From an uncultured bacterium (GTDB lineage Bacteria > Krumholzibacteriota > Krumholzibacteriia > LZORAL124-64-63), in the NCBI GenBank assembly GCA_963727525.1, contig CAVSGO010000007.1:1189393-1253392 (forward strand): 64,000 bases of DNA, read 5' to 3'. Under the pieces are notes generated by a model, which saw only the letters and a list, made by a program, of their open reading frames with translations, searched no databases and was not told the origin of the DNA. This document shows, in pieces, positions 21,067 through 58,090 of the stretch (its first letter is position 1; every line of letters begins with the position of its first letter). A program made the position numbers and the translations under genes.

Positions 21067-21127
21067 CCTCTCGGGTTTCGCGACGGTGACGCGCTGCAAA
21101 CAACCCCGGATCCCGCTCCGGGTTCCC

Positions 21128-22783: not shown

Positions 22784-22784
22784 C

Positions 22785-39168: not shown

Positions 39169-39206
39169 GTGGGCTCCTTCCCATGACGTCACCCCTCCAT
39201 GGGCGA

Positions 39207-39656: not shown

Positions 39657-39670
39657 CGAAACCTGTTTTC

Positions 39671-41107: not shown

Positions 41108-41109
41108 TG

Positions 41110-42114: not shown

Positions 42115-43529
42115 GGTCGCTCGAGCAACGTGGCCAGAGCATCACGGACCCCGCGCCGGTCGCCCAGCGCCGCGAGGTCGAGTAGGTGCGGCATCAGGCG
42201 GGCCGCCGCGTCGGGATCACCGGTGCGGCAACGCGCCTGGTTGATCAGCGGGTTGGCGCTGGTCTCGAGCACCTCGCCGGGATCCAGCAACGACTCGTGG
42301 CACTTCTCGCCGGGCCGCAGGCCCACGATCTCGATCCCGGGTCCGAGATCGTCGTTCTCCACGTCGAATCCCGACAGCGCGAGCAGCGTGCGCGCCAGTT
42401 CCAGGATCGACACCGGGTCGCCCATTTCGAGGATGTACGTAGCACCCGCCTCGCCCAGGACCATGGCCTCGAGGACCAGAAGCGCCGCTTCCTTGATGGT
42501 CATGAAGTAACGCGTCATCTGCGGGTCCGTGATCGGCAACGGCAAGCCCTGAGCGATGCGCCGCTGGAAGAACGGCACCACCGAGCCGCGGCTGCCGAGC
42601 ACATTGCCAAAGCGCACCGTCATGAAGCGCGTCGACCCGGGACCGGCCTGGGCATGCCGTACGAGAAGCTCTGCGAGCTTCTTCGTGGCGCCCATGATGC
42701 TCTGCGGCGCGACCGCCTTGTCGGTGCTCACCATCACGAAGCGCTCGGCGACGACCTCCCGCGCGAACGCGATGAGATTGGCCGTGCCGCCGCCGTTGAC
42801 GACCACGGCCTCCTCGGGATTCGCCTCCATCAGGGGCACGTGCTTGTGGGCCGCGGCGTGCAGAATGAGCTGCGGGCGGTGCCGCTGCGCGAGCACAGTG
42901 AGACGGGCCGCGTCGCGCACGTCGCACACCACCGTCGTGAGCCGGGTCTTGCCGGCGCGCGGCGCCAGCTCGCCGTGGATCTCGAAGAGGCTGTTTTCGC
43001 CGCGGCCGAGCAAGATGAGTTCCTGCGGCTGCAGTGTCAGGAGCTGGCGGCACAGCTCGCCACCGATCGATCCGCCAGCACCGGTCACGAGTACGGTGCG
43101 CCCCTCCACAACGTCGCGCGCCGGACCGGTCTGGAAGGTCACCGTCTCGCGGCCGAGCAGATCCTCGGGCGCGATGGGGCGCACCTGCTGGAAGCTGACG
43201 TCGCCCTCGATGATGGCGCGCAGGCCAGGCACGATGCGAAAGGGCAGCTTCGCGCGCCGGCACAGCATGAGCAAGCGGCGGATGAGCGCCCCGCGCGCAC
43301 TCGGGATGGCCAGCAGGATCTCCTGCGCGCTGACCGCGCGGGCCGCGTCCACCAGGTGGGTCGTATCGCCGACCACCGGCAGCCCGACCACTTCCTTCCC
43401 CAGCAGGGCGGCATCGTCGTCGACGAAACCGACCGGCTCGACGGCCAGATCCTGTTCGCGGATCTGCCGCACCAGCGAGCGTCCGGCCTCGCCGGCGCCG
43501 ACGATGAGCAAGCGCGCCTTGGTGGTCAA
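42102..43529 (-). CDS. CapD/PglF/WbpM-like NDP-sugar 4,6-dehydratase (soluble form lacking the TM region)
   Basis: Rossmann motifs LIVGAGEAG and VLVTGAGGSIGGEL plus a catalytic MVSTDKAV...Y...K region. TTG at 43529 (GGAAAGGA RBS, TTGA overlap with the upstream stop) is preferred over the ORF-track start at 43730. Confidence 0.75.
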   Translation of the reverse strand: MTTKARLLIVGAGEAGRSLVRQIREQDLAVEPVGFVDDDAALLGKEVVGLPVVGDTTHLVDAARAVSAQEILLAIPSARGALIRRLLMLCRRAKLPFRIVPGLRAIIEGDVSFQQVRPIAPEDLLGRETVTFQTGPARDVVEGRTVLVTGAGGSIGGELCRQLLTLQPQELILLGRGENSLFEIHGELAPRAGKTRLTTVVCDVRDAARLTVLAQRHRPQLILHAAAHKHVPLMEANPEEAVVVNGGGTANLIAFAREVVAERFVMVSTDKAVAPQSIMGATKKLAELLVRHAQAGPGSTRFMTVRFGNVLGSRGSVVPFFQRRIAQGLPLPITDPQMTRYFMTIKEAALLVLEAMVLGEAGATYILEMGDPVSILELARTLLALSGFDVENDDLGPGIEIVGLRPGEKCHESLLDPGEVLETSANPLINQARCRTGDPDAAARLMPHLLDLAALGDRRGVRDALATLLERPCLR

Positions 43530-45499
43530 CGAGCGTCCTTTCCCGATTCGCGACTGCCGCCGGGCTGGAACCAGAGCGTCCGCCAGGTAGATCCGCGTCC
43601 GCCCGCCCAGGCGCCGGTGAGTCCCGGCGGCGCCGAGATCGCGTTCCAGAACGGATCGGCGTCCCAGGCGTTCGGCCGCGGCCCCACGAGGGACACGTGC
43701 CCCCGCAACAGTGCGACGACCAGCGGCCACTGCCTCCAGAGGGGCAAGATGCGCCCATCCCGGCCGGTCGCAATCGTGACCCGGAGATTATGCCCGCCCG
43801 CGCCGCGCCAGTCGATGATTTCCCGCCCCGAATGACCGCGCGACCAGACCGCCACCACCGCCAGGGCCGCCCCCACGACCAGCCCCAGCACCCTCAGGCC
43901 GGCGCGACGCAGAGTCTGTCCATCGTCCGGGTCGAGCACGCCGCTCACGTCCGCACCGAAAGTCTCCGCCCGGGCCCCGGCCTCGAGCATCCAGGCTTCG
44001 TCGATGCGCCAACGCAGTCGGATGCGCGCGCGGCGCAGCTGCGCGAGCTCGGCCGCATCGCCCCGGGGAGCCTGCCAGAACACGACCTGGGACACCCGCA
44101 GCCGCTCGACGAGTGCCGGCAGCTCCTGCACCGGCCCGAGCCACGGGATCTCCAGCTCCTGGTCCGTGACGGGCGCATCGGTCACGTAGCCCACGGGATC
44201 GATCCCCTCGCGGCGCGGGTCCGGACAGCCGCCCAACCACTGCTGGAGCTGCGCGGGCGTGGCCACGAGCAACGTGCGCTCCAGGGAGAAGTAGCCGCGC
44301 TCCATGCGACGCCGCAGGCGGGTGAAGATCTGTTCACCCAGGATGGTCAGCCCGGTGAACAGCGCCAGGAAGAGCACGAGCACCGCGCGACTCACGACGT
44401 CCTGTCGACCGAGGTACGGCGTCGCCAGCAGGAGCAGCCCCACGAGGCCCTGCTGCCGCACATACTCGCCCAGTCGCGTGAGTCGGCGCAGCCGCTCGCC
44501 CCGGTACCGCCCCAGGAGCAGGAACGTCACCGTCACGAGCAGGGCGGCGTACGCCAGGAAGCCGCGATACCAGGACAGCGGGAAGAGGGTCTCGGGAAAC
44601 AATGGCTGGAACGCACGCCGCACCCCGTACGCAGTGAGGAAGGCGACGAGAAGCAGCACCATGTCCAGCAGCCAGAGCCCGATCTGGTCGAGCGGTTGCC
44701 GCCACTTCTTGAGCAGGTAGACGAGCACGCCCCACTTCTCGTAGAACGACATCAGGCTCGTCAGGTGCAGCCAGTAGCTGCGCGTCAGCGGGCCGCGCGC
44801 ACTGGCGCGCCGGTGGCGGTGCACGAAACGCGCAGCGGGCGTGTAGACGACCTCATACCCGCAGCGCCACATGCGGTAGCACCAGTCGACGTCCTCGAAG
44901 TACAGGAAGAAGCGCTCGTCCATCGGTCCGCACCGCGCCAGCGCGTCGCGCCGCACCAGGAGGCAGCCGCCCAGCACCCAGTCCACCGGACGTTCGCTCA
45001 AATGGTCGAAGTCGCGCATGAGATGGCGACTCACCGTGCGGCTGCGGGGAACGACGCGTCCCAGCGGCGTCCGCCGCAGCAGCAGCGTGCGCAGGGTGTA
45101 GAAGCGCCGACACGACTCCTGCACGCTGCCGTCGTCGTTGAGCAGTTGCGGACCGATGATGCCGGCGCGCGGCCGTGCGGCGGCGAAGGCCACGAGCGCG
45201 TCGAGCGAGCCCGGCAGCACCACGATGTCGGGATTCAGGATGAGGTAATAGTCGGCCGCCACCTGCGCGAGTCCCTGGTTGCACCCGCGCGCGTAGCCCC
45301 GGTTCTCGGTGTTCATGAGCCAGTGGCAGGCCGGAAAACGATCGCGCACACGATCGAGATCGGGGGCGGTGCTCGCGTTGTCCACGACGACGATCTCGTG
45401 GGCACACGCCGGCGCTTGCTCGTGCAGCGAGGCCAGGCATCGCTCGAGATCGTCGGGCGTGTTGTAATGAATGATCACGATGCCGAGCGTCACCGACAT
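43526..45499 (-). CDS. Bifunctional GT2 glycosyltransferase fused to a bacterial sugar-transferase (phosphoglycosyl transferase, PF02397-like) domain
   Basis: N-terminal GT2 (IVIIHYNTPDDLERCL...VVDNAST, DxD in the FEDVDW region), central TM helices, and a C-terminal LRGHVSLVGPRP...PGLTGAW that matches the ...MSLVGPRP...KPGITG motif of priming sugar transferases. ATG at 45499 shares 1 nt with the upstream stop. Confidence 0.7.
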   Translation of the reverse strand: MSVTLGIVIIHYNTPDDLERCLASLHEQAPACAHEIVVVDNASTAPDLDRVRDRFPACHWLMNTENRGYARGCNQGLAQVAADYYLILNPDIVVLPGSLDALVAFAAARPRAGIIGPQLLNDDGSVQESCRRFYTLRTLLLRRTPLGRVVPRSRTVSRHLMRDFDHLSERPVDWVLGGCLLVRRDALARCGPMDERFFLYFEDVDWCYRMWRCGYEVVYTPAARFVHRHRRASARGPLTRSYWLHLTSLMSFYEKWGVLVYLLKKWRQPLDQIGLWLLDMVLLLVAFLTAYGVRRAFQPLFPETLFPLSWYRGFLAYAALLVTVTFLLLGRYRGERLRRLTRLGEYVRQQGLVGLLLLATPYLGRQDVVSRAVLVLFLALFTGLTILGEQIFTRLRRRMERGYFSLERTLLVATPAQLQQWLGGCPDPRREGIDPVGYVTDAPVTDQELEIPWLGPVQELPALVERLRVSQVVFWQAPRGDAAELAQLRRARIRLRWRIDEAWMLEAGARAETFGADVSGVLDPDDGQTLRRAGLRVLGLVVGAALAVVAVWSRGHSGREIIDWRGAGGHNLRVTIATGRDGRILPLWRQWPLVVALLRGHVSLVGPRPNAWDADPFWNAISAPPGLTGAWAGGRGSTWRTLWFQPGGSRESGKDAR

Positions 45500-46215
45500 C
45501 ACGGAATCTTCTTCAGCCGCAGGGCCCACACCACCCACGCCGCTTCCAAGATGATCCGTCGCGACATCTTGCTCATGCCGACCTGCCGATCGACGAAGAG
45601 TATCGGAATCTCCTTGATGCGCATCCCGCGTTTCCACACGTGGTACGTCACCTCGATCTGGAAACTGTAGCCGTCGCTCTTGATCCGGTCGAGGGGCAGC
45701 GCCGCGAGGGTCGAGCGGCGGAAGCACTTGAAGCCGCCCGTGCAATCGCTGACCGGCAGGCCCGTGATCAAGCGCGCGTAGTGATTGGCGCCCACGCTGA
45801 GGATGAGCCGGCTCAGCGGCCAGTTCACCACCGTGATGCCATGCAGATAGCGGCTACCGAGCACGAGATCGTGGTCGGCGATCTCGCGCAGGAATTGGGG
45901 CAGCGCCGTGGGGTCGTGGCTATGATCGGCATCCATCTCGAAGATCACGTCGCATTCGGTGTTGGCCAGCACCCACTGGAAGCCGGCGATGTAGGCCTGT
46001 CCCAGGCCGGCCTTGCTGGGCCGCAGCAGTAGATGCAGCCGCGTGCCGAAGCCGGGCAGACCGCGCACCACGTCGGCCGTGCCATCGGGCGAGCTGTCGT
46101 CCACGACCAGCACGGCGAGCCGGGGATCCTGCGCGAGGATCTCGGGTACGATGCGCGCGATGTTCTCCGCCTCGTTGTAGGTCGGTACCACCACGATGGG
46201 CCGCATCTCACTCAT
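45499..46215 (-). CDS. GT2 polyprenyl-phosphate sugar synthase (Dpm1/Ppm1-like, e.g. polyprenol-P-mannose synthase)
   Basis: IVVVPTYNEAENI...VVDDSSPDGT...EMDADHSHDP...GFKCFRR motifs are typical of the dolichyl/polyprenyl-phosphate mannosyl/glucosyl transferase family. There is no C-terminal TM. GGAGG RBS. Confidence 0.75.
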   Translation of the reverse strand: MSEMRPIVVVPTYNEAENIARIVPEILAQDPRLAVLVVDDSSPDGTADVVRGLPGFGTRLHLLLRPSKAGLGQAYIAGFQWVLANTECDVIFEMDADHSHDPTALPQFLREIADHDLVLGSRYLHGITVVNWPLSRLILSVGANHYARLITGLPVSDCTGGFKCFRRSTLAALPLDRIKSDGYSFQIEVTYHVWKRGMRIKEIPILFVDRQVGMSKMSRRIILEAAWVVWALRLKKIP

Positions 46216-48643
46216 GTCGCCTCCACCCCACCACCAGCAGTACGACGATGCCTAAAAGTCCGATCAGGCTGGCGACGAATCCCGCGCGCAGACCAGGCGT
46301 GTGGTAGGCGAACCGCACCTCGTGTTTTCCCGCCGGCAACGCCACGGCCCGCAACGCGTGGTCGGCCGTCAGCAACGGCTGTGCCGCGCCGTCCACGTGG
46401 ACGATCCAGCCCGGAGCGGCGAGGTCGGCAAGCACGAGCACCGCGGGCGACGGCGCCTCGGTCGCCAGCACGATCTCGTCGGGACCGTCCTTCACGAACG
46501 TCGGGCGCGGCAGTGGTGCCTCGGCGGGCACGGGCGGCGGTTCCGGGACCTGGTCGAGCACGACGGCCGCGCTCGCGTCGTGACGACCGGCGACGATCGC
46601 ATCGAGGAATGGACCGAGCGAATCGTTCGCCGCGATTGTGAAGCGGTCGACCAGCCGGGCCCGCGGCAAGGCGGCGCGATTGTGGTAGAGCCACATGTTC
46701 CCGACAGTCTGCGGCGTGGGTTCGAGGTCGAGCCCGACCTGGCGCAGCACGTCGAACGCCTCGGCCGGCAGCGCGCGCGCGAAGGTGACCGTCGTCGCTC
46801 CGAGCCAGTTCGCGAGGTGGCCGCTGGGCATCTGCCCGAAGAGCCGCTGGCGCAGTTCCTCGGCCACCGCCGGCTTGGCCGGGTAGTAGCCGCCGAGCGA
46901 CCGCACACCCACGGTCATGTAGGCATTGCTCTGGCTGTCGCGCGCCAGCGGGTACACGCGCTCGTGCCCCACCCCGGCCTGAAGCGCGGCGGCCAGAGCC
47001 GGATCGACGAGCGGGGCGCGCTGGCGACGATAGGGATGCTCGAGCCGGGCGGCGGCCAGGAGGCGCCCGCGTCCCTGCGAGTCGGCCACGACCTGCTGCA
47101 GGGCTGTCTGCGGTGCCGTCACCAGCCTCGCCACGGAACCCAGGTCCACGCACAGGAGCAGCGCGAGCACCCACACCAGCGCCCGCGCCCGGAAGACCGC
47201 GTGCCGCGTGGCCAGGAAGATCGCCCCGGCGGCCGCGAGCAGCACCAGGCCGTCGCGCACGAGGAAACTCTTCTGGAGAGCCCAGGCGCCGTCGAGCAGC
47301 ACGTCGACCGCCTGCTTGCCCGTGCCCGCGGCGACGTCCCGCAGATGGCTGCGGAACGCGCCGGCCGTGGCGCCGGACGCGCCGGCGACGAGCGTGAGCG
47401 CGCCGAGCGCCGCGAGCACGATGAGCACGATGCGCCGTTGCCGGTCACGTCCGGGGGCATCCTCGGCCAGCGCCGCCGCCCCCTGGCCCGCCAGGACCGC
47501 TGCCACGAAGGCCAGTAGCACCAGGATCATCGAGGGCACGCGGAACTTGTCGAAATACGGCAGTGCGGCATACATCGCCTGGTACAGGCCCGGACTGCGG
47601 CCTCCCAGGGCTACCAGCAGCGCCAGCACACCGGCGACCGCGCAGCAGAGCACCAGGCTGCGCCGCCGCGTCCACCAGGCCGCGCCGGCCAGCACCAGCC
47701 ATAGCCAGCCGAGGTAATTGGGATAGTCGGTGAAGGGCATCGGTCCCATGTACGTGGCCTTGCCGAAGCCCATGGCGCCGGGCTGCACCAGCGTCGGGAT
47801 CTCCTGCGGTCCGAGGCTCCAGGCCGTGGCGTAGTCGAAGCCCACACCGCCTCCCGCTCCGCTCCCGCCGCGGGTCGAGATGGCCGCGTAGTCGTGCACC
47901 GGAAGCAGCATCACGGCGCCCACCAGGAACGCGAGCGCCAGGGCAACGGCCACCAGTCCGGCGCGCCGCAACCGCGCGCCGATCGGCACGACGTCACCCA
48001 GGGGCCAGGCGACGTGCCACACGACGATGAATCCGAGCAGCAGAAGCGTGTAGTACGTGATCTGCACGTGCCCGCGCAGGAATTGCAGTCCGAGCAGCAA
48101 TGCCAGCCAGCCCACAGAACGCAGGCGCCCGCGCGTGAGCACGTCGAAGGTCAACCCCACCAGCCAGGGCAGGTACATCGCCGCGCCCAGCTTGCTGCCG
48201 TGTCCGTACACGCTCCACGCCACGATGCGCGCGAACATGAGCCAGCCCACGGCGCCCACGACCCGCGCCGCCAGCGGCAGGCGCCAGCGGCCCAGCAGCC
48301 ACACCATGCCCAGACCGCCGAAGACGAGATGGGCAAGCAGCCACGTCAGCGGCGGGAAATGGAGCTGGCGCTGGAGGAACTCGAGGATCAGGCCCGGCGG
48401 ATAGAGCCCTGGTGTGTAGGCTAGCGAACCGAAGGTGGGCATGCCGATGAAGATGAACGGAGTCCACTGGGGATAGCCGCCCGCCGCGTCGCCGGCCAGC
48501 CGGAACGCGTCGGAGCTCTCGGCGTCGGCGCTCTGGAACACGTGGCCGCGGAACATGGCCCCCGGATAGAGCCATGCCAGTATCAGGACCACGGCCAGGG
48601 CGGGCGCCCAGGCGCGCAGTCGGGACAGCGGCGGCATGGTCAC
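46208..48643 (-). CDS. YfhO-family polytopic membrane protein (GT-C fold glycosyltransferase using polyprenyl-P-sugar donors)
   Basis: 811 aa with at least 13 TM helices and a C-terminal extracytoplasmic domain plus a terminal TM, which is the YfhO architecture. GTG at 48643 has an AAGGAGG RBS (5-nt spacer). Confidence 0.7.
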   Translation of the reverse strand: MTMPPLSRLRAWAPALAVVLILAWLYPGAMFRGHVFQSADAESSDAFRLAGDAAGGYPQWTPFIFIGMPTFGSLAYTPGLYPPGLILEFLQRQLHFPPLTWLLAHLVFGGLGMVWLLGRWRLPLAARVVGAVGWLMFARIVAWSVYGHGSKLGAAMYLPWLVGLTFDVLTRGRLRSVGWLALLLGLQFLRGHVQITYYTLLLLGFIVVWHVAWPLGDVVPIGARLRRAGLVAVALALAFLVGAVMLLPVHDYAAISTRGGSGAGGGVGFDYATAWSLGPQEIPTLVQPGAMGFGKATYMGPMPFTDYPNYLGWLWLVLAGAAWWTRRRSLVLCCAVAGVLALLVALGGRSPGLYQAMYAALPYFDKFRVPSMILVLLAFVAAVLAGQGAAALAEDAPGRDRQRRIVLIVLAALGALTLVAGASGATAGAFRSHLRDVAAGTGKQAVDVLLDGAWALQKSFLVRDGLVLLAAAGAIFLATRHAVFRARALVWVLALLLCVDLGSVARLVTAPQTALQQVVADSQGRGRLLAAARLEHPYRRQRAPLVDPALAAALQAGVGHERVYPLARDSQSNAYMTVGVRSLGGYYPAKPAVAEELRQRLFGQMPSGHLANWLGATTVTFARALPAEAFDVLRQVGLDLEPTPQTVGNMWLYHNRAALPRARLVDRFTIAANDSLGPFLDAIVAGRHDASAAVVLDQVPEPPPVPAEAPLPRPTFVKDGPDEIVLATEAPSPAVLVLADLAAPGWIVHVDGAAQPLLTADHALRAVALPAGKHEVRFAYHTPGLRAGFVASLIGLLGIVVLLVVGWRRHE

Positions 48644-48661
48644 ACGGCCCTCCTTCGCGAT

Positions 48662-49591
48662 TCAGGTTAGCATTCCCGGCGCAGGATTGTCCACCGGCGC
48701 CGCCCGCAGCTCGTCGAGGGCACCTTGTACCAGGGCCAGGGCCGTCGCCCAGCGGCCGTGCCACAGATGCCACACGTAGTGGCCGCCGAAGTAGGCGAGC
48801 TGGCCCAGGGCGAGCGCGGGCCAGTCGCGGACCGGCCAGTGGCGGCGCAGCAGCTTGATGTGGCTGCGGCTGCGCAGGTACGCCTTCCGCGGACTGCCGA
48901 CGCCGAGGCTGGCGCTCACACGGTGCAGGATGAGCGCGCGTGGCACGTGCAGGATCTCGCCGCCCCGCTCGCGCATGCGCAGGCTGTAGTCGGCATCCTC
49001 GCCGTAGAAGTAGAAATCGGTGTCGAGCAGACCGAGCCGCTGAAGGTTCTCACGCGCGAGCAGCAAGGCGCACCCCGTGCCGTAGTCGACGAAACGCTGC
49101 TCGAGGGAGAGCTTGCCGGTGAGCTTGCGGATCCCCTCGTGGCTCACCCAGCCGCTCCAGCGGCCCACACGCCCACCGTCGTACCAGGCGCGCGCGGGGT
49201 CGTCGAAGTAGCAGATGCGCGGCGTGGCCGCCCAGGCGCGCGGCTCGGCCGCGAGCGCGGTGGTGAGCCGTTCGAGGCTGCCCTGGGGCACGCTCGTGTC
49301 GTTGTTCAGCAGGAGCACCTGGTCCTGCGGCAGCCCTTCCTCGAGCAGGCGTTGCAGGGCGAGGTTGTTGCCCGCCGCCCACCGCAGGTTGCGGTCCGAC
49401 TCGATGATCTCGACCTCGGGATGGTGCTTGCGCACGAAGGCCAGCGAGCTGTCCGTGGACGCGTTGTCGACGAGAAGCACTCGCAGATCGGGATAGCCCG
49501 CGTCCCGGAGGGAGCGCAGGCAGTCCGGCAGGACCTCGCGGCCGTTCCAGTTCACCACCACGACCACCAGGCTCGGCAGGGTATCAGACAC
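48662..49591 (-). CDS. GT2 family glycosyltransferase
   Basis: LVVVVVNWNGREVLPDCL...LLVDNASTDSS and DxD motifs. Overlaps the upstream GT2 by 8 nt. Confidence 0.8.
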   Translation of the reverse strand: MSDTLPSLVVVVVNWNGREVLPDCLRSLRDAGYPDLRVLLVDNASTDSSLAFVRKHHPEVEIIESDRNLRWAAGNNLALQRLLEEGLPQDQVLLLNNDTSVPQGSLERLTTALAAEPRAWAATPRICYFDDPARAWYDGGRVGRWSGWVSHEGIRKLTGKLSLEQRFVDYGTGCALLLARENLQRLGLLDTDFYFYGEDADYSLRMRERGGEILHVPRALILHRVSASLGVGSPRKAYLRSRSHIKLLRRHWPVRDWPALALGQLAYFGGHYVWHLWHGRWATALALVQGALDELRAAPVDNPAPGMLT

Positions 49592-50507
49592 GATCGCGCA
49601 CCCGGAACGCCTCGGTCGGCCGGCGCTGGCTGACGATCAGTTCCGCGATCAGCCCCAGGCTGATGAACTGGATGGCCATGATGACGAGCACGAGTCCGAG
49701 CACCAGCATCGGGCGCACGCGCAGCGCGTGTCCCACGAGCCAGGTGACGAGGAAGTACAGGCAGATCGCCAACCCCGCCGTCCCCGTGCCCACGCCGAGC
49801 CGGCCGAAGAAATGCAGCGGCGAGGTGCCGCGCGCGTGCAGGAACGACACGGTGAGCAGATCGAGGAAGCCGTGCAGAAAACGGTCGAGGCCATACTTGG
49901 TGACGCCGTACTTCCGCCGGTGGTGGCGCACCGGGATCTCCGTGACACGGAAGCCATCGAGATGCGCGAGCGCCGGCACGTAGCGGTGCATCTCGCCATA
50001 GAGCGGCAGCCGCTGGGTGACTTCGCGGCGGTACGCCTTGAGCCCGCAATTGAAGTCGTGCAGGGCGAGTCCGCACATCCGGCTCGTGGCCCAATTGTAA
50101 ATCTTGGAGGTGTTGTTCTTGACCCACGTGTCCTTGCGATCCTGCTTCCAGCCCGAGACGAGGTCCCAGCCCTCGTCGAGGGTGGCGAGCAAGCGCGGGA
50201 TCTCGACAGGATCGTCCTGCAGGTCGGCGTCCATGGTGACGACGATGCGCCCCTGCGCGGCAGCGAAACCCGCCGCTAGCGCCGCCGCCTTGCCATAGTT
50301 GCGCGCCAGGCGGATGCCGTGCACGTGGGAGTCGGCCGCAGCCTGGGCCTGGATCGCTTCCCAGGTGCTATCGCGCGAGCCGTCGTCAATGATCCACATC
50401 TCCCAGGCGAGGCCGGCGGCCGCCGCCACGTCGCGCACCTGCGCCACCAGTTCGGGGAGCGATTCGGCCTCGTTGAACGCGGGCACCACGATGGCGACAT
50501 CAACCAC
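49584..50507 (-). CDS. GT2 polyprenyl-phosphate glycosyltransferase (ArnC/GtrB/CsbB-like) with two C-terminal TM helices
   Basis: VAIVVPAFNEAESL...IDDGSRDST...TMDADLQDDP and a C-terminal pair of TM helices, as in Und-P-sugar synthases. Confidence 0.8.
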   Translation of the reverse strand: MVDVAIVVPAFNEAESLPELVAQVRDVAAAAGLAWEMWIIDDGSRDSTWEAIQAQAAADSHVHGIRLARNYGKAAALAAGFAAAQGRIVVTMDADLQDDPVEIPRLLATLDEGWDLVSGWKQDRKDTWVKNNTSKIYNWATSRMCGLALHDFNCGLKAYRREVTQRLPLYGEMHRYVPALAHLDGFRVTEIPVRHHRRKYGVTKYGLDRFLHGFLDLLTVSFLHARGTSPLHFFGRLGVGTGTAGLAICLYFLVTWLVGHALRVRPMLVLGLVLVIMAIQFISLGLIAELIVSQRRPTEAFRVRDRV

Positions 50508-51558
50508 CCTGACGCCTCCTGGCCACGGTCCACATGACCTCGCGTGCGATCCCCTCGGCGAACGGCACTTGCGGCGCGTATCCGATGAGCGCCTCGCCGT
50601 GCGAGCGGTCGGCGTAGGTGTGGCGGACGTCGCCCTTGGCCGTCTCGGTGTAGGCGATCTGCGCCTGGGTGTGCGGCGCGGTCTTGCGCAGAAGCGCCGC
50701 GATCAGCTCGAGCGCGTCGGCCAGCACGATGCGTGAGCCGCCGCCCACGTTGAACACCGGCCCGCCCGCCGGCGCCGCCACGCTCAGCAGATTGGCGCGC
50801 ACGGCGTCGGTGACGTAGGTGAAATCGCGCGTCTGCCGGCCATCGCCATACACGCGGAAGGGCCGTCCGTCGAGCGCCGCCTCGCAGAACTTGCGGAAGG
50901 CCATGTCGGGCCGTTGCCGCGGGCCGTACACCGTGAAGTATCGCAGACTCGCCGTCGGAACCTGGAAACCCTCGGCGTACAGCACGCAGAGATGCTCGGC
51001 CGCCAGCTTGCTCACGCCGTAAGGGGAGCGCGGCATGGGCAGCATGTCCTCCGTCACAGGATACTGCGGCTGGTCGCCGTACACGGAACTGGAGCTTGAG
51101 TAGACGAGGCGCGCGAGGTCGCCGCCCACACGCGGATCGCGGCAAGCTTCGAGTAGCCGCTGGGTCGCCAGCACGTTCCAGTCGAGGTAGTGAGTGAACT
51201 CGCGTCCCCAGCTCGCCCTCACGCCCGCCTGCGCGGCCAGATGGAAACAGGCGCGAGCGCCGGCCAGGAGGTCGACCGCATCGAGGTCGTTCAGATCGCG
51301 TTCCAGGAACGTGAACCGCGGATGGGCCTGGGCCGTGCCCAGGTTCTCGCGCTTGAGGGCCGGATCGTAGTAGTCGGTAAGCCGGTCGACGCCCACCACG
51401 TCGCATTCCAGCGCGAGGAGGGCCTCCGTGAGGTGGCTGCCGATGAAGCCCGCGCACCCCGTGACGACCACGCGGGCGCCCGGCGCAAGGATATCGCGCA
51501 CGGCCGCGGGCAAGTCGGCCGTGAGGGCTGACCAGTCATGCTCCCAGGCCGCGCTCAC
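50500..51558 (-). CDS. NAD-dependent epimerase/dehydratase (UDP-sugar 4-epimerase-like)
   Basis: VVVTGCAGFIGSHL Rossmann motif and SSSSVYG...YGVSK (YxxxK) catalytic motifs. GTG at 51558 overlaps the DUF2723 gene stop (GTGA). Confidence 0.8.
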   Translation of the reverse strand: MSAAWEHDWSALTADLPAAVRDILAPGARVVVTGCAGFIGSHLTEALLALECDVVGVDRLTDYYDPALKRENLGTAQAHPRFTFLERDLNDLDAVDLLAGARACFHLAAQAGVRASWGREFTHYLDWNVLATQRLLEACRDPRVGGDLARLVYSSSSSVYGDQPQYPVTEDMLPMPRSPYGVSKLAAEHLCVLYAEGFQVPTASLRYFTVYGPRQRPDMAFRKFCEAALDGRPFRVYGDGRQTRDFTYVTDAVRANLLSVAAPAGGPVFNVGGGSRIVLADALELIAALLRKTAPHTQAQIAYTETAKGDVRHTYADRSHGEALIGYAPQVPFAEGIAREVMWTVARRRQGG

Positions 51559-54500
51559 TGACCGCCTCCCTGGATGGTCTCCTTCATGCGGCTGTTCTCC
51601 TGATCGCGCGCCTTCGCGTCGAGCTTCTGCATGCGGTCGCGCAGCGTGGGATCGGGCTTGCCGGTCGCCGTCTCGTACCGCGTCACGAGGTCGCGGCATT
51701 TGCCGACCTCGCCTGCCGACTCGTACACGCGAAAGAGCAGATCATAGGCGAACGTCCACTGCGGTGCACGGTCGATCTGCTGTTCGAGCCAGGCGGCTGC
51801 CTGGTCGGCGCGGTCAAGGCCGAGCAGACCGCGCACGCCCGCCAGGATGGCCTGCTCCTCGATGGCCGGATCGATGCGGCCGTGCAGCGACTCGAGGAAC
51901 GCGAGCGCCTTGGCGATCTGGCCATGTTCCATCAGCAACGCCGGGTAATAGCCGGTGGCGACGAGCGCGTTGGTCGGATCGAAGCGTAACGCCAGTTCGT
52001 AGCAGGTCAGGGCGCGGTCCGTGAGGTGGTCGTACGCCGTGGTATCGGCCGCGGCGAGATCGCCGTTGCTGGTACGCAGCTCCTCTGAATCCCGCAGGTA
52101 ATCGAAGCCGGCGCGTGCGATCGAGACCGGGTAGTTGCCCAGGAGGTTCAACGTATTGGCGTCGCGATAGACGTCGGTGCGGTCGTGACCGACCAGCTCC
52201 AGGACCGGCGCGAGGTCGAGCCGCGTCGGCAGGCCGTACTTCTCCAGGTTCAGCGCCGGCGGCGTATCGCTCTGCCAGCCGACAGCCTCGGCGAAGCGCT
52301 GGTGCCGGGGTGCGTCGTCACCCGTGAGCAGTGCGCTCAGCTCGTACGCGCCCAGGACGTTGGCGAGCAGGCGCTCGCCATCGGTGGTGGGCAGGTTGTC
52401 CGGCGACTTGGTCTCGAGGAGCCGGTACGCCAGCCCTTCCATCTGCAGGAAGGGGAAGTAGGTGGCCATGTTCTCGCGCGGGATGGTCACGGCGAAGAAC
52501 ACGGGCCGTGGGTGCGCCGACCTGCGATTCGTGTCGACCACGTCCTGGACCACGTAGTCGCGCACGTAGACATAGGTGATGTTGCCGGTGTCCGCGTCGC
52601 GCAAGGCACGTGGCCGCAGCGCCTCGACCTGCGCCTTGGTGAAGCTGAGCGGGATACCGGGATTCCTGCCGCGGAGCTGCTCCACGTACCACGGCAGGTT
52701 GACCAGCGAGAGGTTCACCACGGTCACGTCGCGCCGGAAGTGCTCCACCTCCTGCAGGTACCAGATCGGGAAGGTGTCGTTGTCGCCGTTGGTGAAGACG
52801 ATCGCGTTCTCGTCGAGGCCGGCCAGGATGTTGTACGCGTACTGGTAGGGGATGCGGTTCTCGTGCCGGTCGTGCTCGAACCACTTCACATGGTGCGGCT
52901 GGATGAGCGGCAGCGCGGCAATGAGCACGAGCAAGGCGGCCGCCACCTTCGCCAGCACTCCAGTGGGCACGGCACGCACGGCCGCCACGGGCGCCAGGCG
53001 CCGCGGCATGCCCCGTTGCTCGCCATAGGCGAGCAACGCGCCGCCGAGCACCGCCCCGTAGCACACCATGACGAAGAGCCGATCTTGCCCCGCGGCGAAG
53101 AGCGAGAGCATGAGCCCTCCGACCACCATCAACGCGATGAACATGAGTCCGAGTCCGAGCCGCGCGCCCCAGGAGCGCGCATTCCAGGCCGCCGGCGGCG
53201 GGGCGGCCGCGCGACCTCGCGCCGGTTCGCCAGGCCGGTCGATGAAGCGGCAGAGAAAAAGTCCCAGGAACGGGCCGCCGAAGAGGATGAATGGCAGCAC
53301 GCCCGGACGCGCGCCGGCGGGCGTGAAGACGAGCAGCACCATCGCCACGATGAACGCCGCACCCCAGCGCAACAGGAATCCCCGCGGCAGGAACGGACGC
53401 GCCGGCGGCGGCGGGTTGGCCTCGCGCTCGAGCTGGCCCAGGCTCGGTCCCTCGGGACCGGCGGTGAAACGCAGCAGGGCGGCCACCCCCAGTCCGATGA
53501 ATACCGCGTAATACATGAAGGCCGCGAAGTAGAAATAGTCGCGTGCGCGGACCTCGTGGTCCGTGAAGTTGAGGTACAGCGTCAACAGATCGGCGTTCAC
53601 GAGATACAGCGCCACCAGCATCCACAGCACGGGGCGCGCACGACGCACGCCGTTGACCAGCCCCAGGAGCCCCAGCGCGATGGGCCCGATGAGGGTGCCC
53701 AGGAACGCCGCCATCCCGTGCTTCTGCGACAGGAAGACGAACTGCTGCATGAGGAAGTCGTAGTAGTAGCGGAACTGGAAGCTCAGCGGCGCCTGGCGCT
53801 GGAGCGGATTGAGCGCCGGGTACTGCTCGCGGCGCAGCACCGAGAGCAGGGTCTTGAAGTTGTCCGGCGTCGTCTGGTTGATCGCCGGCTCGGGATGCGC
53901 TCCGGCGCGGATGATCATCATCAGGTGCACCGACAGGCCCGCCACGAAGAGCAGCAGGGCGAGCAGCGCCAGCGGCCGCCGAGCCATGGCCCGCGCGACA
54001 CACGCCAGCGTGTAGACGATGATCAGCGCCAGCAGGATGCCACCATTCGTGACGAAGGTGGTCGAGGCCAGGAACAGCGCCAGCCCCACCGACACGAGCA
54101 TGAGGTCGAGGACCGGAAGCTGACGATCAGTGGTCATCCAGATCAGCAAGAAGATGCCCGGGTAGGCCAGCAACGACCCCAGGTGGAAACCGACGCCGAG
54201 GCCGAAGAGGTAGATGAGCAGCAGCAGCAGCCAGTTGCTACGCTCCTCCGTTCGGGTCTCGTACCAGCGCAGTCCGAGCCAGGTGAGCAGCGCCATCATG
54301 AAGCCGGCGAGACCATAGACCTCGGCCTCGATGGCATTGTTCCAGAACGTTTCCGAGAACGTCAGGAAGAGCGCCCCTACCACGCCGCCGGCGATGGCGA
54401 TCCAGCCGCTGTCGGGATCGACCCGCCGCGCCAAGCGCACGATCACGAGGTAGCTCAGCATCACGGCGAGCGCGCTGAAGAACGCACTCATCCAGTTCAC

Positions 54501-54755
54501 CGCGGCGGCGGTACGCGTGGACGCTGTCGTGGTGTCGGCTTGCCCCAGGACGCAATCAAATACGCGGCCCACAAGCACGTAGAGCGGCGTGCCCGGCTGG
54601 TGCGGGATGCCGACGATATGGCTAGTCGTGATGTACTCGGCGCAATCCCAGAAGCTGATGGTCGGCGCCATGGTGGCGGTGTAGACACCCAGGGCAAGCA
54701 GGAAGACGCCGCCCGCCACGAGGTTCCCCGGGCGCAGGTACCACTTGCGGTCCAA
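51555..54755 (-). CDS. DUF2723 / TMEM260-like GT-C membrane glycosyltransferase with C-terminal TPR repeats (1066 aa)
   Basis: The N-terminal hallmark SFWDCAEYITTSHIVGIPHQPGTPLYVL matches the DUF2723 WDsGEf...GiPHpPGyPL motif. At least 12 TM helices are followed by a large C-terminal soluble region with TPR-like repeats (…YYPALLMEHGQIAKALAFLESL…). TTG start at 54755. Confidence 0.75.
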   Translation of the reverse strand: MDRKWYLRPGNLVAGGVFLLALGVYTATMAPTISFWDCAEYITTSHIVGIPHQPGTPLYVLVGRVFDCVLGQADTTTASTRTAAAVNWMSAFFSALAVMLSYLVIVRLARRVDPDSGWIAIAGGVVGALFLTFSETFWNNAIEAEVYGLAGFMMALLTWLGLRWYETRTEERSNWLLLLLIYLFGLGVGFHLGSLLAYPGIFLLIWMTTDRQLPVLDLMLVSVGLALFLASTTFVTNGGILLALIIVYTLACVARAMARRPLALLALLLFVAGLSVHLMMIIRAGAHPEPAINQTTPDNFKTLLSVLRREQYPALNPLQRQAPLSFQFRYYYDFLMQQFVFLSQKHGMAAFLGTLIGPIALGLLGLVNGVRRARPVLWMLVALYLVNADLLTLYLNFTDHEVRARDYFYFAAFMYYAVFIGLGVAALLRFTAGPEGPSLGQLEREANPPPPARPFLPRGFLLRWGAAFIVAMVLLVFTPAGARPGVLPFILFGGPFLGLFLCRFIDRPGEPARGRAAAPPPAAWNARSWGARLGLGLMFIALMVVGGLMLSLFAAGQDRLFVMVCYGAVLGGALLAYGEQRGMPRRLAPVAAVRAVPTGVLAKVAAALLVLIAALPLIQPHHVKWFEHDRHENRIPYQYAYNILAGLDENAIVFTNGDNDTFPIWYLQEVEHFRRDVTVVNLSLVNLPWYVEQLRGRNPGIPLSFTKAQVEALRPRALRDADTGNITYVYVRDYVVQDVVDTNRRSAHPRPVFFAVTIPRENMATYFPFLQMEGLAYRLLETKSPDNLPTTDGERLLANVLGAYELSALLTGDDAPRHQRFAEAVGWQSDTPPALNLEKYGLPTRLDLAPVLELVGHDRTDVYRDANTLNLLGNYPVSIARAGFDYLRDSEELRTSNGDLAAADTTAYDHLTDRALTCYELALRFDPTNALVATGYYPALLMEHGQIAKALAFLESLHGRIDPAIEEQAILAGVRGLLGLDRADQAAAWLEQQIDRAPQWTFAYDLLFRVYESAGEVGKCRDLVTRYETATGKPDPTLRDRMQKLDAKARDQENSRMKETIQGGGQ

Positions 54756-54835
54756 ACTGTCCCCTTACGTAAGCGGAATGAATACGCGCACTTCAGGCCG
54801 CAGAAGGTAACACACGGTCAAATGGGCGACAACCC

Positions 54836-55804
54836 TCAACCCCTGACGGTGGCGTCGGTTCCCGCCGGGCGGCGGCTCCAGAACACGACCCCTCCCACGA
54901 GGCTGAACGCCACCATCACCAGGAAGGCCATCATCTCCATGGCCACCACGGCGCGCGGTTCGAGCCCCGACCAGGGCAACAGGTAGGCCGACACGGTCTC
55001 GCGCAGCCCGATACCATTGATCGTCACCGGCAGTGTGAGGCTGATGGCCAGCATCGGCACCAGAACGAAGAGCTGCAGCACCTGAGCGCCCGCGAGCGAC
55101 AGATGGAGGCCCCAGGCCACGGCCAGGTGCGTGACGATGCGCAGGGCCTGCACGACCAGGCTGTAGGCAAAGAGCCGCGCGAGGAGGCGCGGGCGCCGGC
55201 GGAAGGCCTGGAAATCGGCCACCACCATCGCCAGTTGCTCGGCCAGCGTGGGCATCCGCAACCGCCGGAGCCAGCCGGGCAACCGCGTACCCAGACGCCG
55301 CGACAGCAGGGCGGCGACCGCGCCACCCAGGACCAGCAGCACCCCGCCGAGCAGCCACGTCACCGGCGGCAACGGGATCCCGGCCCCCACGGCGACCGCG
55401 ACGGCGACCACCGCCACCATCGTCAGGGCGCTCAGGCCGAGCAGCCGATCCAGGAGCGTGGCGGCGAAGACCTTCGCCGCATCCTGCTCCCGGCGACCGA
55501 GATCGACGACCTTGTAGATGTCGCCGCCCACGTTGGCAGGCAGGAAGTTGTTGAAGAACAGCCCCACCAGGTACAGCCGCACACACACGCGCATGCGGGT
55601 GCCGAGGCCGGCGGCATGCAGCAACCAGCCCCATTGCAGCGCGCCCCCGATCGCGGAGAGCCCGTAGACCGCGAGAGCCACCGCCAGCCACCCCCACATC
55701 GGCTGGCGCAGCGCGGCCTGGATCTCGGCCAGCGGCTGGCGCGAGAGCAACCAGGCCAGCAGGGCGAGACTGACGACGATCTTCGCCAGCTGCTTCGCGG
55801 TCAC
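54836..55804 (-). CDS. LPG-synthase-TM-like / flippase-like membrane protein (UPF0104)
   Basis: 8-TM protein with GLFFNNFLPANVGGD motif typical of the lysyl-PG-synthase TM/flippase-like family. GTG at 55804 overlaps the GT4 stop (GTGA). Confidence 0.6.
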   Translation of the reverse strand: MTAKQLAKIVVSLALLAWLLSRQPLAEIQAALRQPMWGWLAVALAVYGLSAIGGALQWGWLLHAAGLGTRMRVCVRLYLVGLFFNNFLPANVGGDIYKVVDLGRREQDAAKVFAATLLDRLLGLSALTMVAVVAVAVAVGAGIPLPPVTWLLGGVLLVLGGAVAALLSRRLGTRLPGWLRRLRMPTLAEQLAMVVADFQAFRRRPRLLARLFAYSLVVQALRIVTHLAVAWGLHLSLAGAQVLQLFVLVPMLAISLTLPVTINGIGLRETVSAYLLPWSGLEPRAVVAMEMMAFLVMVAFSLVGGVVFWSRRPAGTDATVRG

Positions 55805-56922
55805 CGTTGCGCTCCGATCGCCACCCGCGCGAAGAGGTCGAGCGATTCACGCACGCACGTCGGCCACGCGAAGCTCGCAGCCCATACCCGCGCGGCGTCG
55901 CTGTAGCAGGCCCAGAGGTCGCGATCGTGCAGCAGGCTCAGCGCAGCGTGAGCCATGGCCTCGGCATCGCCGTAGGGCACGAGGATCCCGGTCTGCCCGT
56001 CGCGCACGGAGTCGCGCAGGCCGGGCCGGTCGCTCGCCACCACGGGCAAGCCGCACTGGTTGGCCTCCACCACCGTCAATCCCCACCCCTCCTTGGGGCT
56101 GGGGTTCAGGCACACGTGAGCCCGGTGCAGGGTGCGCACCAGCTCGTCCCAGGGCAGGTGGCCGGTGAAGGTGACGGCATCGGTCAGGCCGACCCGCGCC
56201 ACGAGCCGGCGCAGCCGCGGCTCGTCCGGTCCGCGCCCCATGACGATCAGGTTCGCTTCCGGCAGCTCTTCTCGGATGTGCGCGAAGGCACGGATCGCCA
56301 CGTCGTTGCTCTTGTAGCGTCGCAGCCGCGACCAGCACACCACCAGCGGCGTCTCGGTGCGCGGCGGCGGGTCGTCGAGGGCAAAGCGCTCGTGCGCGAG
56401 ACCGCAGTGGATCACGGCGATGCGCTCGCGCGCGACGCCGCGCCGCGCGAGATCGTCGGCAGTGGACTGACTGATGACCTCGAATGTCGCGTGCCGGTAG
56501 ACCAGCGGAATCGGCCACTCGCCGGCCCACACGTAGGTGGCAACCAGGGGGTTGGTCTCGCGGTACACCGTCCGCCCGAAGAGGTGCGGCACGATGACCA
56601 GCACCGGTACCTTGCCCGCATAGAGCGGCGTGTAGAACGGGATCTTGTTGATGTCCTCGACGACGAGATCCCAGCTCTCCTCGCGCAGGCGCCGACGCAC
56701 TACGGCCGGCAGCAGGATATTCGCGAAGCGCCAGTCGCCGTGGCGCCGCACCCGGACGCCGTCGAGCATATCGGTGGCCGGCGCGCCGGCATAGGCCGCG
56801 CAAATAAGTTCCACCTCGTGACCGTGGGCTGCCGCACCGCTGAGCAGGTGGTGCAGATGCTGCTCCGCGCCACCGCCGAGAGGGTCGCCGATGTCGCGCC
56901 AGTTCACCGCGAGGATCCTCAC
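55801..56922 (-). CDS. GT4 family glycosyltransferase (Glycos_transf_1)
   Basis: VRILAVNW...GGAEQHLHHLL N-domain and C-terminal EGWGLTVVEANQCGLPVVASD (EX7E-type). GTG at 56922 overlaps the methyltransferase stop (GTGA). Confidence 0.8.
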   Translation of the reverse strand: MRILAVNWRDIGDPLGGGAEQHLHHLLSGAAAHGHEVELICAAYAGAPATDMLDGVRVRRHGDWRFANILLPAVVRRRLREESWDLVVEDINKIPFYTPLYAGKVPVLVIVPHLFGRTVYRETNPLVATYVWAGEWPIPLVYRHATFEVISQSTADDLARRGVARERIAVIHCGLAHERFALDDPPPRTETPLVVCWSRLRRYKSNDVAIRAFAHIREELPEANLIVMGRGPDEPRLRRLVARVGLTDAVTFTGHLPWDELVRTLHRAHVCLNPSPKEGWGLTVVEANQCGLPVVASDRPGLRDSVRDGQTGILVPYGDAEAMAHAALSLLHDRDLWACYSDAARVWAASFAWPTCVRESLDLFARVAIGAQR

Positions 56923-57680: not shown

Positions 57681-58090
57681 GGCTTCAGCCCCGCCGCCGC
57701 CCGGTCGAGCACGCCGTTCACGAACCCCACCGCGTGCTCGTCGCAGAACAAGCGTGCAAGCTCGCAAGCCTCGTTGATGGCCACCTTGTACGGCACCTCG
57801 GGGCTGTGATGCAGCTCCGTGATGGCCAGCGTGAGGATGAGCCGTTCAAGCAGCCCGACCCGTTCGAGGTCCCAGTTCGCGAGCAACGGCGCGATCTCGC
57901 GCTCGTGGGCCGCGCCGTGATTGATGACCTTGCGCACGAGCTCGCGGGCGAAGTCGCTGGTCTCGTCGTTCGATTCGCGGCGGTCCAGCTGATCATCGAG
58001 GCACTGGAGCAGCCCCCCGCCGCTCACGCGGGAGGCGTACATGGCCTGCAGAACGATCGCGCGCCCCTTGCTGCGTTTGCCCACGGTCAC
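57677..58090 (-). CDS. nusB: Transcription antitermination factor NusB
   Basis: RSKGRAIVLQAMYA...W...R....ERLIL..A..EL all-helical NusB signature. GTG at 58090 overlaps the ribH stop (GTGA). Confidence 0.85.
   Translation of the reverse strand: MTVGKRSKGRAIVLQAMYASRVSGGGLLQCLDDQLDRRESNDETSDFARELVRKVINHGAAHEREIAPLLANWDLERVGLLERLILTLAITELHHSPEVPYKVAINEACELARLFCDEHAVGFVNGVLDRAAAGLKP

Follow-up and report, generated by a model that had tools for sequence, protein, structure and literature searches.

A conserved Krumholzibacteriota operon, probably for extracytoplasmic cell-envelope glycosylation, with a TMEM260/GT117-family enzyme

Human TMEM260 was recognised in 2023 as a protein O-mannosyltransferase of the endoplasmic reticulum that acts on IPT domains (PMC10214176), and its structure was described in 2026. 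The structure reveals a split active site: D52 and H67 in the first luminal loop hold the donor mannose, and the D52A and H67 substitutions abolish activity; R264 and Y267 of the donor-loading loop and R355 of transmembrane helix 10 bind the donor; the catalytic base, D441, sits in a luminal Rossmann-like domain, and a five-helix tetratricopeptide repeat (TPR) domain grips the extended acceptor peptide (10.64898/2026.03.17.711096). Bacterial relatives have previously been mentioned only as "distant homologs", and a literature search for bacterial DUF2723/GT117 proteins returned papers on human TMEM260 only. Here we describe such a relative, a 1066-residue protein of glycosyltransferase family 117 (GT117), and the operon that encodes it on the minus strand (-) of a 64,000-nucleotide stretch from an uncultured Krumholzibacteriota bacterium (contig CAVSGO010000007.1, positions 1,189,393 to 1,253,392). 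This stretch is referred to as the window, and all coordinates are window positions. The operon, 39821-57767 (-), is one conserved unit, most likely for glycosylation of the cell envelope outside the cytoplasm.

The window protein and human TMEM260 both carry the domains PF11028 and PF28495, and both consist of a GT-C transmembrane (TM) core, a luminal or periplasmic alpha/beta domain and a TPR-like tail, in that order. Human D52, H67 and D441 correspond to D37, H52 and D658 of the window protein, which are invariant among its homologs, and the implied donor is likewise a polyprenyl-monophosphate sugar. However, the window protein is larger (1066 residues and 15 predicted TM helices, compared with 707 and 11), a lineage-specific insertion of about 170 residues supplies four of its TM helices, and about 270 residues are alignable. 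Its donor sugar is probably not dolichol-phosphate-mannose, and its gene is one of 13 in an operon that also encodes candidate donor synthases and flippases.

Extracytoplasmic glycosylation from lipid-linked single sugars has several bacterial precedents. In the GtrA/GtrB/Gtr* systems, the GT136 pentofuranose systems and CsbB/YfhO, a synthase, a flippase and a GT-C enzyme are encoded together, and this three-component logic includes non-GtrA flippases, as the flippase family varies (SMR, GtrA, MATE) (PMC11127046). The window operon follows the same logic, and two such systems appear nested in it. However, its flippase candidate is of the PF03706/MprF type, which is undescribed for such systems, and its GT-C enzyme has an alpha/beta-plus-TPR lobe in place of a carbohydrate-binding module. 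The streptococcal Pgf and GtrB/PgtC2 systems (PMC5856776, PMC12041528) combine an epimerase, a GtrB/ArnC-type family 2 glycosyltransferase (GT2) and a YfhO-family GT-C enzyme in one operon and transfer sugars from undecaprenyl phosphate outside the cytoplasm. One window GT2 scores 126 bits to PgfS, and the YfhO-like window protein matches PgfM1 and PgfM2. The streptococcal systems differ in that they are Gram-positive, act on Ser/Thr-rich disordered tails, and have neither a GT117 partner nor a module of a family 4 glycosyltransferase (GT4) and a PF03706 protein. The first-pass annotation of this DNA had compared its GtrB-like and YfhO proteins to teichoic-acid glycosylation by CsbB/YfhO. Teichoic acid is not expected in this Gram-negative-type lineage, and the CsbB/YfhO analogy is not the sole precedent, as YfhO-family enzymes glycosylate proteins too (PMC12041528).

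Two further systems resemble parts of the operon. In gpgSDF of P. aeruginosa and hexSDF of C. difficile (PMC12713373), as in the window, genes for a GT4, a small modifying enzyme and a UPF0104/PF03706 protein are adjacent and overlap. In the window, however, the modifier is a methyltransferase and not a deacetylase, two GT-C enzymes come after the module, and the GT4 is not a GpgS ortholog (43 bits to the GlcNAc-phosphatidylglycerol synthase model, cut-off 480). The second is ArnC/ArnT, where an ArnC-like GT2 likewise accompanies an SDR (short-chain dehydrogenase/reductase) enzyme that modifies a UDP-uronate and a GT-C transferase. The window GT2 is below the ArnC equivalog cut-off, family scans of the operon genes gave no ArnA, ArnB, ArnD or ArnT (GT83) match, and the window GT-C enzyme belongs to another family and has a large periplasmic lobe. 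RgtE and RgtA-D of Rhizobium, which add galacturonate to lipopolysaccharide (LPS), are a parallel to the same set of genes.

The GT117 enzyme and its split active site

The product of 51555-54755 contains the stretch FWDCAEY...GIPHQPGTPLY that had led the first-pass annotation to call it a DUF2723 protein, and the assignment holds. PF11028 (TMEM260-like) matches residues 37-210 with 158.1 bits against a cut-off of 24.2 and is found in 42 of 42 homologs, and PF28495 (TMEM260_2) is on record as a precomputed match of an identical database protein and of all 120 homologs listed with it. Metagenome bins of Candidatus Krumholzibacteria supply the nearest named homologs, one of which NCBI labels "glycosyltransferase family 117 protein". 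Among solved structures, human TMEM260 (9rql) is the best match by sequence, with an E-value of 8e-16 when the protein is searched alone and of 3e-22 with a profile of the 42 sequences.

In the phmmer alignment to 9rql, D37 falls on D52 and H52 on H67. A second aligned stretch (query 613-705 to human 396-488) places D658, within TNGDNDTFP, on the catalytic base D441. All three residues are invariant in the 42 homologs (49-68% identity), and so is the whole stretch T655-P663.

The AlphaFold2 model (pLDDT 82, pTM 0.82) shows 15 TM helices, then an alpha/beta domain (residues ~650-780) and, at 902-1062, eight paired helices. Thus, the predicted structure has a GT-C fold followed by a periplasmic alpha/beta domain and a TPR-like tail, and the two features on which the first-pass annotation had staked its proposal, the GT-C fold and an acidic first-loop motif, are both present in the model and the alignment. 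The model puts the C-terminal lobe in the periplasm, because the number of TM helices is odd. The annotation had further described a long C-terminal TPR region. This overstates the repeats: they make up a TPR-like tail of about 160 residues (902-1062), and the rest of the extramembrane portion (about 620-1066) consists of the alpha/beta domain and linker helices. Foldseek matches the tail to TPR proteins with probability 1.0, a profile match links it to designed TPR proteins (E 4e-4), and TPR_14 is found in 7 of the 42 homologs; the window protein itself has no Pfam TPR match at E <= 0.1. By alignment and model, this is a true TMEM260/GT117-family GT-C enzyme with an acidic first-loop motif and a catalytic Asp in the luminal-type domain.

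The families themselves were already known and annotated. What is new is that a very large bacterial family conserves the split active site, with its catalytic base unusually placed outside the membrane domain.

The insertion at residues ~430-600 spans about 170 residues, adds four predicted TM helices and Pro/Ala-rich linkers, and is specific to this clade. Relatives of about 900 residues and those from other phyla are without it, and their tblastn matches skip residues 430-600.

A conserved operon with donor synthases and flippase candidates

The operon comprises 13 genes over 18 kb (Table 1) between nusB and mraZ. Its surroundings, also on the minus strand, read in order smc, ftsY, ribD, ribE, ribBA, ribH, nusB, the glycosylation operon, mraZ and the division and cell-wall (dcw) cluster with ftsI, Mur-ligase genes, mraY, murD, ftsW, murC, ftsA and ftsZ. 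The G+C content of the window is about 70% throughout, and long spurious open reading frames (ORFs) are therefore common. However, the four ORFs on which the first-pass annotation was built (those of the GT117, YfhO-like, ArnC-like and DPMS-like proteins in Table 1) are all present on the minus strand with a third-position G+C (GC3) of 0.85-0.89, the codon bias of real genes. They are genuine genes, and their family assignments hold.

The annotation had confined the cluster to 45499-54755, which is only part of the conserved unit. Outside it lie the methyltransferase-GT4 pair, the PF03706 gene, a PglF-like dehydratase and a MOP-like flippase candidate, and the epimerase-like gene and further GT2s had likewise gone unmentioned. 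At eight of the first nine junctions the genes overlap by 4-8 nt or are 18 nt apart; at the ninth, 80 nt separate the GT117 gene from the gene before it. Directly upstream of GT117, the GT4 gene shares 7 nt with the methyltransferase gene and 4 nt with the PF03706 gene. The GT117, epimerase and ArnC-like genes overlap consecutively (7 nt and 8 nt), and the YfhO-like gene overlaps the DPMS-like gene by 8 nt. The operon has the same GC content as its surroundings. It lies in ordinary chromosome, at a conserved place between nusB and the dcw cluster, and is no variable exopolysaccharide (EPS) island.

By their family matches, the operon genes encode two GT-C enzymes, two GT2s of the polyprenyl-phosphate-sugar-synthase type, two flippase-like proteins, an SDR enzyme resembling UDP-glucuronate 4-epimerases and several cytoplasmic glycosyltransferases. 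The second GT-C enzyme is YfhO-like, as annotated: PF09586 scores 32.3 bits against a cut-off of 28.5, restricted to residues 742-790 (the last 49), and is matched by 42 of 42 homologs. The structure predicted for it combines a GT-C fold with a beta-rich domain in the periplasm and a TM helix at the C-terminus. The matches to the NCBIfam models PgfM1 and PgfM2 cover only about 60 C-terminal residues and are far under the cut-offs.

Both donor-synthase candidates also agree with their first description. The ArnC/GtrB-type GT2, with TM helices at 244-262 and 269-287, is closer to ArnC (204 bits) than to GtrB (104 bits) over its full length in the PDB, and scores 198.7 bits to the ArnC equivalog model (cut-off 529). 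The other GT2, similar to dolichol-phosphate-mannose synthase (DPMS), has as its best PDB match the catalytic domain of the P. furiosus enzyme (5mlz, E 1e-22) and has no TM helix. Its best NCBIfam matches are all polyprenyl-phosphate-sugar synthases (AglJ, PpgS, Dol-P-hexose transferase), far below their cut-offs. Because neither GT2 reaches an equivalog cut-off, the sugar identities given here are guesses. The SDR enzyme is most similar to the B. cereus UDP-glucuronate (GlcA) 4-epimerase (6zl6/6zld, 250 bits; the identity of 6ZLD is taken from PMC11519531), followed by MoeE5 (215 bits), WbpP (151 bits) and GalE (about 130 bits). This gene lies between those of GT117 and the ArnC-like GT2, so the sugar need not be mannose, and the similarity is a hint of an undecaprenyl-phosphate hexuronate, in place of mannose, among the donors. 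Of the lipid-linked mannose or hexose first proposed, the lipid-linked donor remains probable, while mannose is no longer the only candidate.

No GtrA or SMR protein that could serve as donor flippase was found in the operon. The candidates for this role are the PF03706 protein (113 bits) and the weakly MOP-like protein 39821-41185, whose ortholog in the related locus L086 matches MatE (E 3e-4) and MurJ (E 9e-4). By analogy, the substrate of the PF03706 protein could be a glycolipid instead of a lipid-linked donor.

We have high confidence in the general mechanism, in which the GT2s load undecaprenyl phosphate, the flippase-like proteins move the sugars outward and the transfer in the periplasm falls to the two GT-C enzymes. 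The undecaprenyl-phosphate sugars would be made on the cytoplasmic face, probably a hexuronate donor by the ArnC-like GT2, supplied by the adjacent epimerase, and a hexose donor by the DPMS-like GT2. The flippase-like proteins would carry these donors to the periplasmic face, where the two GT-C enzymes would pass single sugars to periplasmic acceptors. The first periplasmic loop of GT117 would grip the donor sugar through D37 and H52, as the human enzyme does through D52 and H67, and D658 of the periplasmic alpha/beta domain would be the general base, as D441 is there.

The order nusB-MT-GT4-PF03706-GT117-epimerase-GT2-GT2-YfhO-GT2-GT2 (MT, methyltransferase) persists in relatives whose identity falls to about 50%, and L086 has the whole run, ending PglF-GNAT-membrane protein-mraZ. 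The operon order is conserved across Krumholzibacteria, and parts of it stay beside GT117 genes in other phyla. A scan with one genome per species finds GT117 relatives in at least 598 genomes, spanning Krumholzibacteria, Latescibacterota, Eisenbacteria, KSB1, Zixibacteria, Cloacimonadota, Calditrichota, Gemmatimonadota, Chlorobiaceae, Ignavibacteria and Bacteroidota. With a profile, 8,292 clusters at 50% identity (E <= 1e-10) are recovered from 1.84 billion cluster representatives, and most of them align through the GT-C and alpha/beta domains and not the tail.

For the best 80 species-level loci, we counted the window-gene orthologs that share the strand of GT117 and lie no more than 10 kb from it. 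GT4 genes are neighbours in 27 of these, across phyla, methyltransferase genes in 22, and PF03706 genes in 21, with a median gap of 258 bp. The DPMS-like GT2 is found in 16 loci and the ArnC-like GT2 in 15; one or the other is present in 25, in several phyla and always on the same strand, which bears out the proposed association of GT117 with synthase-like GT2s. The epimerase follows with 12 loci and the YfhO-like gene with 6. The conservation of the operon, the link of GT117 to PF03706 and GT4/methyltransferase genes, and its donor-synthase and flippase-like company in several phyla are new. The first-pass annotation had paired the Dpm1-like GT2 with the DUF2723 protein and the GtrB-like GT2 with YfhO. 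However, the adjacency is the opposite: GT117, epimerase and ArnC-like GT2 are contiguous, the DPMS-like gene adjoins the YfhO-like gene, and the ArnC-like gene is two genes upstream of the latter. In other lineages both GT2 types accompany GT117, so that either pairing may apply.

Two other arrangements of GT117 genes recur. Chlorobiaceae loci have the fixed order hemN-like radical SAM gene, GT117, lpxA and ROK kinase (L042:8825-14389, L029, L037, L039, L048 and L075; L056 is truncated within lpxA), with carriers that include the cultured Prosthecochloris ethylica and a Chlorobaculum sp. The hemN-like neighbour is also retained in Bacteroidota and Ignavibacteria loci. Tandem pairs of full-length GT117 genes occur in L013, L017 and L084 (at about 10001-14860; KSB1 and Cytophagia-like) and in L058 (611-5375; an unclassified metagenome-assembled genome). 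A PF03706 gene comes after each pair, and all but L013 also have a DPMS-like GT2 a few kb beyond it.

The acceptor of the GT117 enzyme

We suggest, as a tentative leading reading that falls somewhat short of probable, that the acceptor is protein and that the operon carries out O-glycosylation. This suggestion comes from homology: the only characterised GT117 enzyme acts on protein, and the window enzyme retains both the catalytic Asp in the lobe that binds the peptide and the TPR-like tail. Exported streptococcal proteins are O-glycosylated by systems made of an epimerase, a GtrB-type GT2 and a GT-C enzyme, i.e., PgfS/PgfE/PgfM1 and GtrB/PgtC2 (PMC12041528). The acceptor of GT117 would then be Ser or Thr in extended segments of Sec-exported proteins, gripped by the alpha/beta-plus-TPR lobe. 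The first-pass annotation had likewise predicted glycosylation of periplasmic or surface proteins rather than a conventional EPS pathway. Its second half agrees with the fixed position of the operon and with the finding of no active phosphoglycosyltransferase (PGT) and no Wzy, Wzz or Wza among its genes, while the protein acceptor is suggested by homology.

Several observations weigh against protein as the acceptor. Human TMEM260 is the one GT117 that has been characterised, and the identity to it is low, with only about 270 residues alignable. R264, Y267 and R355 of TMEM260 could not be mapped: residues 285-435 searched alone gave no TMEM260 alignment, and the invariant R309-x-x-Y312 and R403/R405 are plausible counterparts in this unaligned region. 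The TPR-like tail is the least conserved part, with most family members aligning only through the alpha/beta domain, and TPR domains are also found in polysaccharide export machinery. Neither donor GT2 reaches any equivalog cut-off. Half of the counted loci (40/80) have none of the methyltransferase, GT4, PF03706 or either GT2 gene near GT117, and in seven Chlorobiaceae loci GT117 is directly upstream of lpxA. The commonest bacterial neighbours, the cytoplasmic GT4 and the methyltransferase, have no role in periplasmic protein O-glycosylation, and a GT4 with a PF03706 flippase is the layout of a glycolipid operon, gpgSDF (PMC12713373).

These neighbours are accounted for equally well by a lipid-anchored acceptor, a glycolipid or lipoglycan, which we regard as a serious but on the whole doubtful alternative. 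Here the GT4, with the methyltransferase and the soluble GT2s, would glycosylate a lipid, the PF03706 protein would flip it, and GT117 and the YfhO-like enzyme, drawing on polyprenyl-phosphate sugars, would lengthen or decorate it on the periplasmic side. Such a pathway resembles the mycobacterial synthesis of phosphatidylinositol mannosides, lipomannan and lipoarabinomannan (PIM/LM/LAM; PimA/PimB', Ppm1, PimE/Mpt/Aft) and lipoteichoic-acid glycosylation. It gives roles to more operon genes than a protein acceptor does, and it fits the overlap of the GT4 and PF03706 genes directly upstream of GT117. The GT4 and methyltransferase genes are the most widely kept GT117 neighbours, even in Bacteroidota, Ignavibacteria and KSB1 loci with no synthase nearby, and the operon has no active initiating phosphoglycosyltransferase, which argues against an ordinary repeat unit linked to undecaprenyl diphosphate (Und-PP). 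The P. aeruginosa gpgSDF GT4 and UPF0104/PF03706 flippase make and, as proposed, flip GlcN-phosphatidylglycerol, with hexSDF of C. difficile being analogous (PMC12713373), and PF03706 is the lipid-flippase domain of MprF, often fused to GT-A or GT-B domains (10.1101/2022.03.11.483950). However, the sole characterised GT117 modifies protein, and the window enzyme keeps the TPR-like tail, with its catalytic Asp placed in the domain that in TMEM260 provides the peptide groove. Glycolipid-synthase models, with cut-offs of 400-480, give the GT4 only 42-43 bits. Further, no lipoglycan is known from these phyla.

It is unlikely that GT117 adds a charged sugar to lipid A or the LPS core from an undecaprenyl-phosphate donor, in the way of ArnC/ArnT with 4-amino-4-deoxy-arabinose (Ara4N) or of RgtE/RgtA-D with galacturonate (GalA). 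The GT2 beside GT117 is nearest to ArnC over its full length, and the gene in between is nearest to UDP-GlcA 4-epimerases and would yield UDP-GalA; together these weakly support such an acceptor. Rhizobium has GT-C transferases for LPS that depend on polyprenyl-phosphate-GalA, and GT117 adjoins lpxA in the Chlorobiaceae loci. However, the adjacency is limited to that one family, the GT2 reaches 199 of the 529 bits required by the ArnC equivalog, the remaining Arn families are not matched among the operon genes, and ArnT-type enzymes have no 450-residue alpha/beta-plus-TPR lobe bearing a catalytic Asp.

An ordinary Wzx/Wzy-type exopolysaccharide or O-antigen cluster, in which the GT-C enzymes would handle an Und-PP-linked repeat unit as its polymerase, ligase or en-bloc oligosaccharyltransferase, would explain the several cytoplasmic glycosyltransferases, the PglF-like dehydratase, the GNAT protein and the weakly MOP-like membrane protein, but is very improbable. 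The catalytic dyad is gone from the one PGT-like segment, and Wzy, Wzz, Wza and ABC-transporter families were not found among the operon genes. The fixed nusB-mraZ position, phylum-wide order and unremarkable GC differ from variable surface-polysaccharide islands, and those GT117 and YfhO relatives whose function is known draw on single sugars linked to a monophosphate.

If protein O-glycosylation is nevertheless the right answer, bacterial GT117 could represent a widespread, unstudied system that places single sugars, possibly hexuronate, from undecaprenyl-phosphate donors via an MprF-type flippase onto unfolded Sec-exported proteins. It would cover the Fibrobacterota-Chlorobiota-Bacteroidota group as well as Krumholzibacteria, Latescibacteria, Eisenbacteria, KSB1, Zixibacteria and Gemmatimonadota. 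We consider this generalisation possible, and doubtful in its full extent. The split-active-site mechanism of human TMEM260 would then be a bacterial invention predating eukaryotes. The question raised is whether TMEM260-type O-glycosylation is bacterial in origin, or whether the family first acted on lipid-anchored glycans. Either answer would make GT117 part of a core envelope component in several poorly known phyla, and a new role is suggested for PF03706/MprF-type flippase domains.

Operon genes and neighbouring features

Table 1. Genes of the glycosylation operon, from nusB towards mraZ.
Product	Position	Strand	Evidence and remarks
SAM (S-adenosylmethionine)-dependent methyltransferase; first gene after nusB	56919..57767	(-)	Methyltransf_11 72.8 bits; start uncertain, orthologs ~262 aa
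GT4 (GT-B) glycosyltransferase, cytoplasmic	55801..56925	(-)	Glycos_transf_1 128 bits; no TM helix
PF03706 membrane protein (LPG_synthase_TM / UPF0104 / PplT)	54836..55804	(-)	PF03706 113 bits, full length; at least 6 TM helices
GT117/TMEM260-family GT-C glycosyltransferase, 1066 aa	51555..54755	(-)	PF11028 158 bits
SDR nucleotide-sugar epimerase, nearest UDP-glucuronate 4-epimerases	50500..51561	(-)	PF01370 Epimerase 183 bits
ArnC/GtrB-type GT2, candidate undecaprenyl-phosphate sugar synthase	49584..50507	(-)	PF00535 114 bits; two C-terminal TM helices
Soluble GT2, rhamnosyltransferase/MftF-like	48662..49591	(-)	PF00535 64 bits; weak NCBIfam MftF and rhamnosyltransferase matches; no TM helix
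YfhO-family GT-C glycosyltransferase, 811 aa	46208..48643	(-)	PF09586 32.3 bits
Soluble DPMS/Dpm1-like GT2, 238 aa, candidate polyprenyl-phosphate hexose synthase	45499..46215	(-)	PF00535 98 bits
GT2 with four TM helices and degenerate phosphoglycosyltransferase-like C-terminus	43526..45502	(-)	GT2, CoA_binding_3, weak Bac_transf match
PglF/CapD-type nucleotide-sugar 4,6-dehydratase	42102..43730	(-)	Polysacc_synt_2 335 bits; start uncertain (listed ORF overlaps preceding gene by 205 nt)
FemAB-like GNAT (Acetyltransf_6)	41110..42114	(-)	PF13480 61 bits; ortholog in L086
Polytopic membrane protein, weakly MOP/Wzx-like, candidate second flippase; last gene before mraZ	39821..41185	(-)	At least 8 TM helices; Polysacc_synt E 0.03

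The ORF 54765-55850 was considered as the gene upstream of GT117 and rejected, as it is in the wrong frame and has no Pfam match; the real gene is that of the PF03706 protein (GC3 0.90).

The C-terminal tail of the 43526-45502 product keeps the PGT-like motif SLVGPRP...PGLTG, while the position of the Asp-Glu dyad reads WRQW. In orthologs the GPRP motif has decayed too, and the tail looks like a conserved but inactive PGT remnant. An active phosphoglycosyltransferase initiating an Und-PP-linked repeat unit was rejected on these grounds.

In relatives, an 811-residue secreted protein is encoded between the 700-residue GT2 and the PglF-like gene (L086:15421-17856, also L001, L003, L004 and L005). 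It has weak beta-propeller matches and a weak FlgD_ig/CHU_C C-terminus similar to those of type IX secretion. By tblastn there is no trace of it anywhere in the window, and it is absent between 43526 and 43730, which rules it out as an encoded, obligate substrate. It could be a substrate or partner that was lost or moved in this genome.

Directly after mraZ, at the head of the dcw cluster, lies an ORF with a STAS_2 domain (38764-39675 (-); L086:22411-22583). The listed window ORF overlaps mraZ by about 470 nt, and its start is uncertain. The ORF at the expected position of rsmH (37374-38591) has no Pfam match. At the other end of the window, 718-3780 (+) encodes a 1020-residue protein with PDZ, GAF and SpoIIE-type PP2C phosphatase domains, which is a possible partner-switching regulator (compare the STAS gene).

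A literature search for a Bacteroidota O-oligosaccharyltransferase gave nothing that identifies the enzyme. TPR proteins and peptidyl-prolyl isomerases (PPIases) are among the most frequent O-glycoproteins of Bacteroidota (PMC10897501). Just downstream of ftsZ, 19627-22819 (-) encodes two adjacent TPR-rich proteins, one with a C-terminal PPIase (rotamase) domain; by analogy, they offer a loose lead to candidate acceptors.

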